From contig CAZLSF010000001.1 in the NCBI GenBank assembly GCA_964562245.1, positions 1 to 45,902 of the forward strand: a DNA stretch of 45,902 nt, in the 5' to 3' direction. Positions 29,015-45,902 of this stretch are shown piece after piece. How positions within the stretch are numbered: position 1 is the first letter of the stretch; every line of letters starts with the position of its first letter. The stretch is from an uncultured archaeon. Lineage in GTDB: Archaea > Aenigmatarchaeota > Aenigmatarchaeia > QMZS01. Both the position numbers and the translations under genes were made by a program. Under the pieces are notes generated by a model. That model was not told the origin of the DNA and made no database searches. It worked only from the letters and a program-made list of their open reading frames with translations.

Positions 29015-29052
29015 TTATTGAGGGTAAAATAAAAAAAATAATATAATTTTAT

Positions 29053-29350
29053 GCCTCAGTAGCTCAGTTAAACTGCAAACAGCATTCATCAAAAATGATG
29101 CCCTTTTTCGCGTTGCGAAAAATAAGGTTTTATCATTTGGTCTGCCTTTGCTTAAATACCTTAAAAAAACTCGGCAAGCTTTCAAAAAGTTTCAGTTTAG
29201 AGAAATCTGGTAGAGTGCGTGCTTGGTAAGCACGAGGTCCCGGGTTCAACGCAACTCTTTTCACAGGCGAAGCAAATGCTTGTCTTTTAGACTGTACCCT
29301 ATTTGCTTTGCAAAATGGAAAGGTATAAAGTGAAAACCCCGGCTGAGGCT
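29053..29350 (+). tRNA. tRNA-Thr (anticodon GGU) interrupted by two introns (D-loop ~29069-29206; T-loop ~29250-29335)
   Basis: The exons assemble into a 74-nt cloverleaf. Acceptor stem GCCUCAG/CUGAGGC. D stem GCUC/GAGU. Anticodon stem CGUGC/GCACG with loop UUGGUAA. Variable region AGGUC. T stem CCGGG/CCCGG with loop UUCAAAC. Discriminator U. The ends of the D-loop intron pair (UUAAACUG...CAGUUUAG). Confidence 0.75.
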
Positions 29351-41969: not shown

Positions 41970-42389
41970 TTACTGAATTATTGGGATAAATTGAGTTTTC
42001 CCCTTGCACTCGACAACCTCCACCATAAATCCCTTTATATCCTCATAATTATTCTCTATTATATCTTTATCAAAAGTTATCTCAGTTGGAGTATTTGCTT
42101 CAAAAGGACCTTTTATTTTTTTTATAAAAGCTTTTTGATTAGTGCCAAGAAAAATATAAAGATTATACGCATTTACGCTGGTTCCTATGTTTTGCACAGT
42201 AAAGGTACCCGCATCATAATCATAGTTGTAATAAGTCAAATCCAATTTACTGCAGGTTTCCATAGATCCGAGTTCTGATTGCGTGTAGTTCATAGCCCAA
42301 GTTCCTACAATTGCCGCAATGGCTACACTAATAACTATTAGAAGTACGCTTGCGACTATAGGAGAAATTCCCTTTAACCCTTGCAACAT
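41970..42389 (-). CDS. archaeal type IV pilin-like protein (class III signal peptide, DUF361-type)
   Basis: MLQGLKG|ISPIVASVLLIVISVAIAAIVGTWA. Confidence 0.8.
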   Translation of the reverse strand: MLQGLKGISPIVASVLLIVISVAIAAIVGTWAMNYTQSELGSMETCSKLDLTYYNYDYDAGTFTVQNIGTSVNAYNLYIFLGTNQKAFIKKIKGPFEANTPTEITFDKDIIENNYEDIKGFMVEVVECKGKTQFIPIIQ

Positions 42390-42447
42390 AATATATATAA
42401 GTATTTATTCAAAAAGAATGTATTTAATTTTATTAAAATAATTTTAT

Positions 42448-42668
42448 GCCACGGTAGCTCAAGCTTACCCTTTTCTTTTCCGAAAGGAAAAGACTAAAGT
42501 TCACCCAAAAGAAAAGGAGATTATTCACACTCCAAAATGTATTCGGAATAAAAGGGAAGGAGCAATCCGGTAGAGCACCGGTCTTGTAAACCGAAGGTTG
42601 AGGGTTCAACGCAACCTTTTTCTACGCAATTATTTAAAAAGGTATAAGTGGAAATCCCTCCCGTGGCT
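42448..42668 (+). tRNA. tRNA-Thr (anticodon UGU) interrupted by two introns (D-loop ~42463-42565; T-loop ~42610-42653)
   Basis: The exons assemble into 74 nt. Acceptor stem GCCACGG/CCGUGGC. D stem GCUC/GAGC. Anticodon stem CCGGU/ACCGA (27:43 is a C-A mismatch) with loop CUUGUAA. T stem GAGGG/CCCUC with loop UUCAAAU. Discriminator U. The D-intron ends pair (CUU(A)CCCUUUU...AAAAGGGAAG). The T-intron has an 8-bp internal stem ACCUUUUU/AAAAAGGU. Confidence 0.75.
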
Positions 42669-42727
42669 GATTTATTAAGGTTATATGTCCACACCCTTGT
42701 TAAAGTAATAGTAAAACAAAAAAAAGC

Positions 42728-43885
42728 ATGGACATATACGAAAGATTGAGGAAAAGAAAAATATCCGAGAGCAATAAAAGAGTTATTAAGCAATTTATTA
42801 AGAATAGAGAAAGTGAAGGAATACAGGAAAGGAGATTATCAAAGTATGAATATATGTTGTCTGTTTTTGCGGGAGTTGTTAAAAAGGATATTTCTAAAGT
42901 TGGTGAAAAAGATCTAAGAAAATTCACAACATGGTTATTGGAACAGAAATTATCAGAGAACACAAAAATAACTTTTAAGATAGTTATAAAAACTTTCTTT
43001 AGAAACTTTGTATTTGGTGGTGAACTGCCAAAAAAGTTTAGAGAAATTCTGAAAGCAAAAAGGATTACAAACAATCTAACTCCTCAGGATTTATGGTCTA
43101 TGGAAGATATACAAAAATTACTTAATCAAACTCAAAATATAAGAAGAAAGGCTATGATAATGGTCTTATTTGAGGGGGGATTGAGAGCTGGTGAATTGCT
43201 ATCTCTTCGTGTAGGTGATATTGAGTTTACAAATTGGGGTTGCAGGATTTTTGTTCCGGAATCAAAGACAAAAACAAGAAGTCTGCCTTTATTTAATTCT
43301 GCTCCTTTGTTAAGTCAATATTTAAGAACTCATCCTAAAAGAGAAGATAAAACTATTTCCCTTTGGCTTAATGATAAAGGTAAACCTATGAAATATCCTG
43401 CTTTAAGAAAAATGCTAAATGATTTAAAAGATAAGGCAGGTTTCCAAAATAAGAGAATATTTGCTCATTTACTCAGGCACTCAAAACTTACAGTTTTATC
43501 TCAGCAACTAAAATCAGCAGAGTTAAAAGAATTTGCAGGATGGACTTCCATAAAAATGGTGGATACTTATTCTCACTTAAATTGTGAAAATGTAGAAGAG
43601 AAACTATTAGAACAACAGGGAATTAAAATTAAGAGTAAAAAAGAAATATATAATCCAATAAAGTGTCCGAGATGCAATCAACAAAATGAATATAATGCTA
43701 AATACTGTAATTCCTGTGGGTTAATTCTTGGAAAAACAGCAATAGAGGAAGTGAAGAAAATAGAAACTTTAGATAACCTAAGTACTGAAGCCTTAAAGAA
43801 AGAAAATGTTCGGGAAGCCTTTAAAGAAGCAATAAAGGAATTGATTAAAGAGAATCCTGATATTTTGAAAGGATTAAATTTATAA
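42728..43885 (+). CDS. tyrosine recombinase/integrase with C-terminal zinc ribbon
   Basis: Catalytic set: GGLRAGE (Arg), SKTKT (Lys hairpin), HLLRHS (HxxR), GW, and MVDTYSHL (Tyr). The C-terminal extension carries CPRCNQQNEYNAKYCNSCG. The gene starts 60 nt after the tRNA-Thr(UGU). Confidence 0.9.
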   Translation: MDIYERLRKRKISESNKRVIKQFIKNRESEGIQERRLSKYEYMLSVFAGVVKKDISKVGEKDLRKFTTWLLEQKLSENTKITFKIVIKTFFRNFVFGGELPKKFREILKAKRITNNLTPQDLWSMEDIQKLLNQTQNIRRKAMIMVLFEGGLRAGELLSLRVGDIEFTNWGCRIFVPESKTKTRSLPLFNSAPLLSQYLRTHPKREDKTISLWLNDKGKPMKYPALRKMLNDLKDKAGFQNKRIFAHLLRHSKLTVLSQQLKSAELKEFAGWTSIKMVDTYSHLNCENVEEKLLEQQGIKIKSKKEIYNPIKCPRCNQQNEYNAKYCNSCGLILGKTAIEEVKKIETLDNLSTEALKKENVREAFKEAIKELIKENPDILKGLNL

Positions 43886-43896
43886 ATATTGTGTTA

Positions 43897-43980
43897 CAAA
43901 GAACTACTTTGAACTACAAATGTATAGCATTGTATTACTTTTGGATACAAAAGTATTTAAAATAAATACTTTGTAATACA
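43897..43980. promoter_or_regulatory. candidate operator/promoter region upstream of the RHH gene
   Basis: Direct repeat gaactac at 43901-43907 and 43911-43917. Inverted repeat tgtattac (43931-43938) / gtaataca (43973-43980). An inner imperfect palindrome aaagtattt-aaaat-aaatacttt overlaps an AT-rich TATA-like stretch. Confidence 0.3.
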
Positions 43981-43985
43981 TATTT

Positions 43986-44273
43986 ATGGCAAATAAAAAG
44001 AGTATATCTCTAAGGTTGGATGAAGAAGAAATTAAAAAAATAAGAGATATTGCAGAAAAAGAAGGAGTAAAAAGAAGTTTTATAATTAAAAAAGCAATAA
44101 CTCAGTTTATTGAGAACTATGGAAAAGAGTCTCAAGATGAAAAAAAGATATATGAAAAAATCAGTGAAATTGAAAGAAGGTATGGATCAGTTTTAACAAG
44201 AACAAATATCCTCAAAACACAAGTTGATAATATTATCAAAAGAATGGATAAAATAGAGAAAAATGGAAAATAA
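43986..44273 (+). CDS. ribbon-helix-helix (CopG/Arc/MetJ-like) DNA-binding protein
   Basis: KKSISLRLDEEEIKKIRDIAEKEGVKRSFIIKKAITQFIENY is a beta strand followed by two helices. The C-terminal half looks like a coiled coil. Confidence 0.8.
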   Translation: MANKKSISLRLDEEEIKKIRDIAEKEGVKRSFIIKKAITQFIENYGKESQDEKKIYEKISEIERRYGSVLTRTNILKTQVDNIIKRMDKIEKNGK

Positions 44274-45902
44274 AATAGACAGGTTATTAAAAGAAAGTTG
44301 TCCCTGGCAGGACAAATCTAACAAGGAATGGTATGTTAAAGATGGAGATCTTAGAGAATTGATAGAAGCAGAAAAACAGGGTTTATTTCATCCTCCTAAG
44401 ATAAAATATGTTTTAGAAAAGAAGTTCTTTGACGAATTGTTTAAGGATTCAAATAAGTATGGAATACTAATCCTGAGAGGACCTAGAAGAATTGGCAAAT
44501 CATCTACTTTAAAATATTTAGTAAAAGAATATATAGATAAGAAAGAAGATCCAAATAGGTTCGTTTATCTTTCTCTTGATAAAGAAGATCTTTTTATAGG
44601 AAGTAAAAAAAGAATATTTTTAAGAGAATTAATAAAAAATGTAATTAACAAATACAAAAAAGAAAATAAACCATTAGTTCTTATTCTTGATGAAGTTACC
44701 TTCTATGAAGGATGGTGTAGGGCATTCAAAAATTTAATAGATGAAGGCATTATAGGTCCTGGTATTGGGATGATTGCAACAGGTAGTTATTCTTTAGATT
44801 TAAGCAGTGCAAAAAGAGAATTATCAGGAAGATTTGGTCCTTTAGGTGAAGCATTCGGTGGTGATATATTCATGTATCCAAGAAAATTTATAGAACTATC
44901 TGAATCTTTACTTGGTGGAGATTTCAAAAATTTTATTGGTAAAAACATTGGTGACTTTGGAAAAAGATGCGGTATGATAGAATATTTAGCTAATTATCAA
45001 ACAAAAGAAAATAATATAAAATTCGGTTATGAACAACTTTTAAATCAAATTTTATATCAGTACTATGATGACTTACACGATCTATTTAAAGAAATTTATT
45101 TATACAGTGGAGGTTATCCGAGATCGTTTTATAGAGCTATATTGAGTAAAAGGTCTGGTGAGGTTGCAGTTTCTGATTCTAGGTATATAGAAGATATATA
45201 TAATCTGCTTGTTACAGATTCAAAAAAATTTAGACTTTCTGAAGAGACTCTCAAAAGTATATTAAAAAAGATAGAATTTCCTTCAATGGAAATTACCTAT
45301 ACCTCTCTAATTAAACTCAAAAAAGAAGATGTAGAAAAATATATATCTTATCTAAAAGCTTCTGGTCTGTTTGCTTTTATACCACTTATTAGCTCTTCAA
45401 CACAAATAGATGTTGAAAACTTGCTGGTAACACCAAACAGAGAAAAATTAAAGTTAATTATAACTGATCCTGCTGCTTTCATAGCAATTTATATGGGTTC
45501 AAGAGGAATAACAGGAGATATAATTAAACATACTAAAGAAATATTTACCCAAAAGGAAAAAATAAAAGAACTATTATTTGAATCCATCGTAGTATCTCAT
45601 TTATTGAGAAGCCCTATTTTTAGGAAGTCTTCTCTTGTAGAAAATGTTTGTTTTGTCAAAAAAGAAAATGAAGAGCTAGTAGATTCTCTAGCATGGTATG
45701 TAAACTGGAAAAACGAATTAGTTCTTGTTGCTGTAGAAGCAAAAACAGGAAATATAGACCTAAAAGAAATAAAAAGGAAATCAAATATATTAAAAGATGA
45801 ATTTAATATAAAACGCTTAATTGTTGTTTCTAACAACAAAGAACTAAAAATTGAAGAAGATTATGTTGTAATTCCTATTGAAATATTCCTTCTCTTTTTA
45901 TA
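44263..45902 (+). CDS. AAA-type ATPase of the COG1373 (AAA_14 plus DUF4143-like) family, 3'-truncated by the window edge
   Basis: This ORF is not in the supplied track because it has no stop inside the window. The ATG at 44263 overlaps the RHH stop by 11 nt. Walker A is ILRGPRRIGKSST. Walker B is LVLILDEVTF. The C-terminal part (WYVNWKNELVLVAVEAKTG) resembles the nuclease-fold DUF4143 end. Confidence 0.8.
   Translation, partial: MENKIDRLLKESCPWQDKSNKEWYVKDGDLRELIEAEKQGLFHPPKIKYVLEKKFFDELFKDSNKYGILILRGPRRIGKSSTLKYLVKEYIDKKEDPNRFVYLSLDKEDLFIGSKKRIFLRELIKNVINKYKKENKPLVLILDEVTFYEGWCRAFKNLIDEGIIGPGIGMIATGSYSLDLSSAKRELSGRFGPLGEAFGGDIFMYPRKFIELSESLLGGDFKNFIGKNIGDFGKRCGMIEYLANYQTKENNIKFGYEQLLNQILYQYYDDLHDLFKEIYLYSGGYPRSFYRAILSKRSGEVAVSDSRYIEDIYNLLVTDSKKFRLSEETLKSILKKIEFPSMEITYTSLIKLKKEDVEKYISYLKASGLFAFIPLISSSTQIDVENLLVTPNREKLKLIITDPAAFIAIYMGSRGITGDIIKHTKEIFTQKEKIKELLFESIVVSHLLRSPIFRKSSLVENVCFVKKENEELVDSLAWYVNWKNELVLVAVEAKTGNIDLKEIKRKSNILKDEFNIKRLIVVSNNKELKIEEDYVVIPIEIFLLFL

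Follow-up and report, generated by a model that had tools for sequence, protein, structure and literature searches.

A tRNA-Thr(UGU) gene with two non-canonical bulge-helix-bulge introns in the intron-rich tRNA gene set of a Ca. Aenigmatarchaeota genome

Multiple non-canonical bulge-helix-bulge (BHB) introns in tRNA genes have been described in Thermoproteales, ARMAN-1/2, N. equitans, and other archaea (PMC4033280, PMC3239211), and a twice-interrupted BHB tRNA gene is a type already known. In ARMAN-2 (Ca. Micrarchaeum), the pre-tRNA-Cys(GCA) contains a 59/60 intron of the hBH type that is cleaved in vitro by the EndA endonuclease of the same organism (Fujishima 2011, PMC3239211), and the pre-tRNA-Pro(GGG) contains introns at positions 53/54 and 59/60 (PMC3239211). 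Multiple-intron tRNA genes and intron transposition are reported for Thermoproteales (Sugahara 2008; Fujishima 2010; reviewed in PMC4033280 and bioRxiv 10.64898/2026.10.13.758758); the share of introns common to different tRNAs was given as 28% for Thermoproteales and 1.5% for Asgard (10.64898/2026.10.13.758758), by a procedure that differs from the one used here. In DPANN archaea, a link was drawn between an alpha4-type EndA with an "L3" loop and the disruption of tRNA genes (Kaneta 2018, PMC5829648), and hidden disrupted tRNA genes were predicted in such genomes by the same study. Relaxed motifs are not cleaved by classical alpha4 endonucleases (PMC3239211, PMC5829648).

The gene considered here belongs to a genome of Ca. 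Aenigmatarchaeota (DPANN; 0.895 Mb, 100 contigs, 89% complete, 31.7% G+C), hereafter G000, whereas G001, G002, G004, G006, G007, and G008 denote same-genus genomes with orthologues of this gene. Within the window, i.e., the whole stretch of 45,902 nucleotides that was analyzed, positions 42448-42668 on the plus strand constitute a tRNA-Thr(UGU) gene divided by two non-canonical BHB introns into three exon pieces. The closest counterpart is found in ARMAN-2, another DPANN archaeon with a relaxed hBH intron in the T-loop at 59/60 (cleavage is predicted from sequence in our case), with use of the 53/54 site, as in the orthologues from G001 and G007, and with an EndA insert between the catalytic Tyr and His; however, EndA of ARMAN-2 is a three-unit epsilon2 protein rather than a single alpha unit, and its Cys intron is 13 nt long, compared with 20-170 nt for the introns described below. 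As in Thermoproteales, a gene may have as many as three BHB introns at non-canonical sites, and related introns recur across tRNA types and positions (16 of 45 introns in G000). In contrast to Thermoproteales, which belong to the TACK superphylum and possess an (alpha-beta)2 EndA with a Crenarchaea-specific loop, the studied organism is a member of DPANN, has an alpha unit with a Nanoarchaeum/ARMAN-type insert, and demonstrates a very strong bias toward position 59/60. The genome shares with those discussed by Kaneta (2018) its DPANN affiliation, a single alpha-type EndA with an insert common to N. equitans and ARMAN-2, and a full tRNA set that escapes standard tools, but tRNAs of Aenigmatarchaeota were outside that survey (PMC5829648), and EndA is here additionally equipped with a lysine-rich N-terminal extension of ~115 aa. 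The near-total disruption of tRNA genes, the dominance of position 59/60, and the presence of intron families like those of Thermoproteales in a DPANN lineage whose EndA is single-subunit go beyond the known picture.

Gene structure and splice junctions

No RNA genes were found in the unspliced window by ARAGORN or by Rfam at gathering thresholds, and the Rfam tRNA model (RF00005) assigns the unspliced gene 18.1 bits at 42553-42624, compared with a cut-off of 29. With both introns cut out in silico, ARAGORN recognizes a 74-nt tRNA-Thr(tgt), in agreement with our own cloverleaf rules; both the location and the identity of the gene had been assigned correctly in the preliminary description. The gene and its downstream neighbor are arranged as follows:

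42448..42462, plus strand: exon 1, tRNA positions 1-15 (acceptor 5′ strand, U8, A9, GCUC, A14, A15)
42463..42565, plus strand: intron 1, 103 nt, position 15/16, relaxed HBh′ type
42566..42610, plus strand: exon 2, positions 16-59 (remaining D-arm, anticodon arm with anticodon UGU at 42585-42587, variable loop, T-stem 5′ strand, T-loop U54-C59)
42611..42654, plus strand: intron 2, 44 nt, position 59/60, hBH type
42655..42668, plus strand: exon 3, positions 60-73 (U60, T-stem 3′ strand, acceptor 3′ strand, U73)
42728..43885, plus strand: tyrosine recombinase gene, 60 nt downstream (Pfam Phage_integrase, E = 7.6e-23), not part of the tRNA

The spliced tRNA has a perfect 7-bp acceptor stem, a 4-bp D-stem, and a 5-bp T-stem, and holds U8, A14, G18G19, U33, and the discriminator U73; the 3′-terminal CCA is not encoded in the gene. 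The C27-A43 mismatch in the anticodon stem, which had been pointed out previously, is indeed present and is common to the orthologues in G004, G006, G007, and G008, whereas G001 and G002 have G27-C43. This mismatch weakens the anticodon stem and counts against a functional tRNA.

The central helix of the first junction is formed by D-stem bases 10-13, GCUC (42457-42460), and GAGC (42560-42563), the latter occupying the sixth to third bases ahead of the 3′ cut. The central helix is bordered by the bulges A14 A15|G and AA|U, directly after which begins the inner helix (42464-42474 / 42550-42559, CUU(A)CCCUUUU/AAAAGGGAAG). Since this motif (H = 4 bp, h′ = 3+7 bp) has no outer helix, it is of the relaxed HBh′ type. 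At the second junction, the T-stem serves as the outer helix (42600-42604 / 42656-42660), U54-A57, UUCA (42605-42608), pairs with UGGA (42649-42652) in the central helix, and the bulges, ACG and AAU, are 3 nt each (A58 C59|G and AA|U). This motif (H = 4 bp with one G-U pair, h = 5 bp, the T-stem, and h′ = 1 bp) is a relaxed hBH, since its inner helix comprises only one base pair. Each of the two junctions contains the elements by which BHB motifs were defined here, namely a 4-bp helix, two 3-nt bulges, and at least one flanking helix. The length of exon 1 (15 nt), the D-loop intron (103 nt, 42463-42565) with its closing helix, and the T-loop intron (44 nt) with its 8-bp stem ACCUUUUU/AAAAAGGU (42614-42621 / 42636-42643) are all as originally proposed, and the intron positions equal those of tRNA-Thr(GGU) at 29053-29350, whose BHB geometry is alike as well.

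The unconstrained minimum-energy fold of the unspliced 221 nt (-63.1 kcal/mol, z = -3.2, none of 200 shuffles being as stable) shows the acceptor stem, the first junction with its GCUC/GAGC helix, AAG bulge, and inner helix, and the T-stem that closes intron 2; the central helices of both junctions are part of it. Given that group I introns have been found in archaea (PMC6125680) and split tRNAs in Nanoarchaeum (PMC4033280), the inserts might in principle splice themselves as group I or II introns, or the tRNA might be put together in trans from split genes. However, inserts of 103 and 44 nt are far below the size of a ribozyme, the core of which takes several hundred nucleotides, the Rfam families of group I and II introns are unmatched in the window at gathering score, and all three exons lie in order on the same strand in a stretch of 221 nt. 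We consider the probability of either explanation negligible.

The cuts were placed after the second base of each bulge. In the whole genome, this rule leads to position 37/38 for all 10 anticodon-loop introns and to 59/60 for 18 T-loop introns, with the same geometry in 18 of the 22 genes of the census described below. Taken with the BHB geometry, it locates the T-loop cuts after C59 and before U60, so that the exons are 15+45+14 nt long. The preliminary description had proposed 15+44+15 nt; its first exon stands, but the T-loop cut shifts from 58/59 to 59/60, with C in place of A at position 59 as the sole consequence (T-loop UUCAACU instead of UUCAAAU). The T-loop sequence is ambiguous because both readings yield a 7-nt loop with U60, and the product of a 58/59 cut in the same gene, by the same mechanism, is accepted by ARAGORN equally well. 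Nonetheless, such a cut would come after the first bulge base rather than the second, at variance with the 10 introns at 37/38 and the 18 at 59/60, and in intron-free relatives position 59 is G or U but in no case A, and the sequence continues from the U of UCCC. In particular, an intron-free contig of a relative reads UUCAA-G-UCCC, where the counterparts of 42609 and 42655 are joined with one variable base between them. A cut at 58/59 thus appears unlikely.

We propose, with a probability of roughly 0.9, that this is a functional tRNA-Thr(UGU) gene whose two introns are predicted to be excised by EndA and whose exons would be joined by RtcB. From the observed sequence features, orthologue junctions, and enzyme genes, we infer transcription, cleavage, and ligation in the following order. 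A 221-nt precursor would be transcribed from the gene and would form two BHB motifs, each half exon and half intron. The motif at 15/16 would combine the helix of D-stem GCUC and GAGC with 3-nt bulges and a strong intron-internal helix (HBh′), and the one at 59/60 would stack the T-stem on the 4-bp helix of U54-A57 with UGGA, again with 3-nt bulges (hBH), apparently copying on the T-arm the geometry of the canonical 37/38 intron on the anticodon arm. The single alpha-type EndA with its basic loop insert would then cut after the second bulge base, and RtcB would ligate the exons of 15+45+14 nt into the 74-nt tRNA, to which CCA would be added later. The fact that both motifs are relaxed counts against this scheme, given the limits of classical alpha4 EndA.

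Orthologous genes and the adjoining integrase element

Orthologues were identified by a DNA search of 60 relatives followed by inspection. Their introns differ in presence and position:

G000: 103-nt D-loop intron at 15/16; 44-nt T-arm intron at 59/60
G004, G006, G008: no D-loop intron, GCUCAA-UCCGG or AACCCGG, identical to the predicted junction; T-arm intron at 59/60 with UUCA/UGAA and the AAU bulge
G007: no D-loop intron, same predicted junction; T-arm intron at 53/54, intact loop UUCAAUU
G001: 54-nt D-loop intron ending in GAGCAA; T-arm intron at 53/54, intact loop UUCAAGU
G002: 37-nt D-loop intron ending in GAGCAA; no T-arm intron

With introns present in some genomes and absent from others, the exon boundaries can be fixed without reliance on any motif. 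The 15/16 introns of G001 and G002 differ from that of G000 and end in the same GAGCAA. Exon 1 is 100% identical to its orthologues in G002, G004, G006, G007, and G008, and exon 2 has 92-97% identity with orthologous exons from same-genus and same-family genomes. Furthermore, DNA contigs of four other metagenomes, of hydrothermal vent, marine, and marine sediment origin, retain positions 42350-42669; only two substitutions are seen, and each falls within intron 1.

The downstream region is variable. In three other metagenomes, the sequence past 42669 switches to an integrase-free flank, TTTATATTTACTTC..., which is similar to the flank in G006, and one contig joins unrelated DNA to 42657-42749. 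An integrase-bearing element (window positions 42657-45902) appears to have been inserted at the very 3′ end of the tRNA-Thr(UGU) gene, and the latter contig suggests an attachment core of ~12 nt wholly within the 14-nt exon 3. No second copy of the tRNA 3′ end of at least 12 nt, which would show where the integrase element stops on its other side, was found in G000; a lone 10-mer match on contig C59 lies in unrelated GC-rich sequence.

The proximity of this element to the gene, as well as the membership of the D-loop insert in a sequence family present in several other loci (see below), would fit a decaying pseudogene, i.e., a tRNA gene broken by mobile DNA whose inserts are never removed. 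Such decay is difficult to reconcile with intact exons that share 92-100% identity with orthologues, with substitutions between populations that are confined to an intron, and with a splicing motif located in both inserts exactly at the junctions. ARAGORN and our BHB finder detected no further tRNA-Thr(UGU) gene in the G000 assembly. Moreover, 30 of the 31 recognizable tRNA genes are built alike, and the same reasoning would leave the cell almost without tRNAs. We therefore regard a pseudogene as very improbable and retain the interpretation of a functional, spliced gene.

The tRNA gene set and its splicing enzymes

Interrupted tRNA genes were collected by a finder that first searches for BHB-like intervals, each with a 4-bp helix, 3-nt bulges, and a flanking helix, and then fits up to a few of them into a rule-based cloverleaf built around a 7-bp acceptor stem. 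The strict census comprises 22 interrupted loci with 45 introns, which are ARAGORN-valid once spliced and all have different anticodons: three each for Val and Leu, two each for Thr, Lys, Ser, Glu, and Arg, and one each for Ala, Met, Ile, Gly, Asn, and Gln. Thirteen of these genes have two introns, five have three, and four have one; intron length varies between 20 and 170 nt, with the median being 62. The introns are distributed as follows:

Position 59/60: 18 genes
Position 37/38: 10 genes
Position 15/16: 7 genes
Position 54/55: 3 genes
Other D-arm sites and 29/30: the remaining 7

The motif statistics of the census are circular, since introns were proposed by the BHB motif; support independent of the motif comes from cloverleaf and ARAGORN validity, the 22 distinct anticodons, a decoy search, the orthologue junctions, and an upstream TTAT element. 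The decoy, a reversed (not complemented) genome, yielded one locus with five implausible introns, compared with 22 loci in the real genome. As for the upstream element, (A/T)TTAT or a close variant immediately precedes +1 in all 22 census loci, a feature unused by the finder, and exon 1 of tRNA-Thr(UGU) is directly preceded by ATTTTAT. In the window, the element occupies 42441-42447 and 29046-29052, and TAAT, TATAT, and TAAAT occur as rare variants. It may be a processing signal or a promoter feature at a fixed distance. No RNase P RNA was matched in G000, which, along with TTAT at the tRNA 5′ ends, had raised the possibility of life without RNase P; this lead was dropped because 7 of 9 same-genus genomes do have RNase P RNA, and the lack of a match in G000 is probably an assembly gap.

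A relaxed search added four genes, Ser(GCU), Ser(GGA), Ala(CGC), and Leu(CAA), and inspection of weak Rfam matches added four more:

Asp(GUC): intron at 54/55
Tyr(GUA): introns at 37/38 and 59/60
initiator Met: intron at 59/60
Thr(CGU), G000 contig C2, 16270-16400, minus strand: no D-loop intron, a single T-arm intron at 53/54 or 54/55

Since tRNA-Thr(CGU) is devoid of a D-loop intron, the two-intron layout is not common to all Thr genes. Models with four or five introns produced by the relaxed search (on contigs C2, C13, and C39) were rejected as artefacts, those on C2 and C13 proving on inspection to be simple one-intron genes. A tRNA-Leu with the anticodon AAG (A34), which is unusual for archaea, was observed at C30:6329-6476 on the minus strand of G000; tRNA-Leu(AAG) has been noted in ARMAN-4 (Fujishima 2011, PMC3239211).

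Overall, about 30 of the 31 recognizable tRNA genes are interrupted (22 strict, 4 relaxed, and 4 found by eye), and Cys(GCA) is the only uninterrupted tRNA gene found in G000 by ARAGORN. The suggestion, made from two genes in the window, that tRNAs of this genome are as a rule laden with introns is thereby borne out by the genome-wide survey of intron number and position. Searches of the unspliced genome gave only six matches above the cut-off for the Rfam tRNA model and three for ARAGORN. Per genome, there are 2-19 Rfam tRNA matches in the same family and 2-42 elsewhere in the class, which indicates that the degree of tRNA hiding differs by lineage.

The genome contains one EndA gene, encoding an alpha-type protein of 296 aa (L001:1474-2364, minus strand, on G000 contig C18; PF01974 match at C18:7327-7599, E = 4.6e-26) with N-terminal (E = 1e-14) and C-terminal (E = 1e-24) Pfam domains. 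A beta-like paralogue was not found by tblastn. The nearest solved structures are the M. jannaschii alpha4 enzyme (1A79) and the N. equitans alpha subunit (3IEY). Between the catalytic Tyr and His, EndA carries a basic six-residue insert, KRGPKS, that is conserved in 13 Aenigmatarchaeota; an insert of this type is shared with the N. equitans alpha subunit and the ARMAN-2 catalytic unit and is missing in M. jannaschii, A. fulgidus, and M. kandleri. We take it to correspond to the L3 loop of Kaneta (2018) by virtue of its presence in N. equitans and ARMAN-2 rather than from the published figure, and it is this loop insert from which a broad specificity of the enzyme toward relaxed motifs is predicted. 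The lysine-rich low-complexity extension of ~115 residues, which precedes the canonical N-domain and varies in length in close relatives, might add non-specific RNA binding. The RtcB ligase is encoded at C8:16090-17394 (E = 2e-174). This splicing machinery fits the picture drawn by Kaneta (2018, PMC5829648).

Intron families and their implications

Both introns of tRNA-Thr(UGU) have relatives in other tRNA genes. Intron 1 and the 15/16 intron of tRNA-Ala(GGC) of the same genome share 83.5% identity over 91 nt; in the latter gene, the D-stem GUUC is paired with GAAC instead of GCUC with GAGC, a compensatory change. Further members of this family are present at 15/16 in G006 (Phe(GAA)), G008 (Ala), and G007 (Lys(CUU), Thr(GGU), and Thr(CGU)). 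Taken together, no fewer than six tRNA species (Thr-UGU, Thr-GGU, Thr-CGU, Ala-GGC, Phe-GAA, and Lys-CUU) from five same-genus genomes have a member of the family at this site, and in four of these genomes the orthologous tRNA-Thr(UGU) lacks it. No C or D box motifs of a C/D-box guide RNA were seen by eye inside intron 1.

The first 33 nt of intron 2 have 82% identity with the 59/60 intron of tRNA-Ala(GGC), which itself is matched by introns from Asn, Lys(UUU), and Arg(UCG) genes. In G004 and G006, the 59/60 introns of tRNA-Thr(UGU) are longer and resemble, by eye, that of G000 tRNA-Thr(GGU), so that the 44-nt intron 2 looks like an internally deleted member of the family. More than one-third of the census introns (16/45) are at least 80% identical, over 35 nt or more, to an intron from a different tRNA type, whereas none did so in 30 dinucleotide shuffles. 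Seven of these 16 introns match across positions 37/38 and 59/60, which are structurally equivalent. Such sharing of introns among tRNA types resembles, in its sequence pattern, the intron transposition of Thermoproteales.

In G022, a genome from another family of the class (loci L014 and L039-L042), more than 10 copies of a ~50-nt hairpin, CCUUUUCUUUU..AAAAG..CCCAAAAGAAA, resemble nucleotides 19-68 of intron 1. These copies are intergenic, located beside the starts of protein-coding genes in both orientations and outside tRNA genes. The hairpins are rich in purine/pyrimidine tracts and may be homologous to intron 1 or low-complexity look-alikes.

Nearly the whole tRNA set of this lineage is missed by standard tRNA finders, and genome-quality metrics and codon-usage inferences for such metagenome-assembled genomes are therefore misleading. 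At the same time, the 45 or more introns, mostly of the hBH type at 59/60, constitute a compact natural substrate set for EndA specificity, with which the broad specificity of a homotetramer-type EndA with a Nanoarchaeum/ARMAN insert could be tested. The polymorphism of intron presence within the genus and the intron families that cross tRNA types bear on how intron DNA enters tRNA genes, a matter on which Thermoproteales and Asgard were contrasted recently (2026 preprint 10.64898/2026.10.13.758758). We slightly favor the view that both introns of tRNA-Thr(UGU) belong to BHB-intron families that are actively spreading in a DPANN lineage. If this is true, Aenigmatarchaeota would represent a second, independent case of large-scale tRNA-intron transposition, in which the spread was accompanied by near-total disruption of tRNA genes (~30 of 31) and was served by a single-subunit endonuclease.
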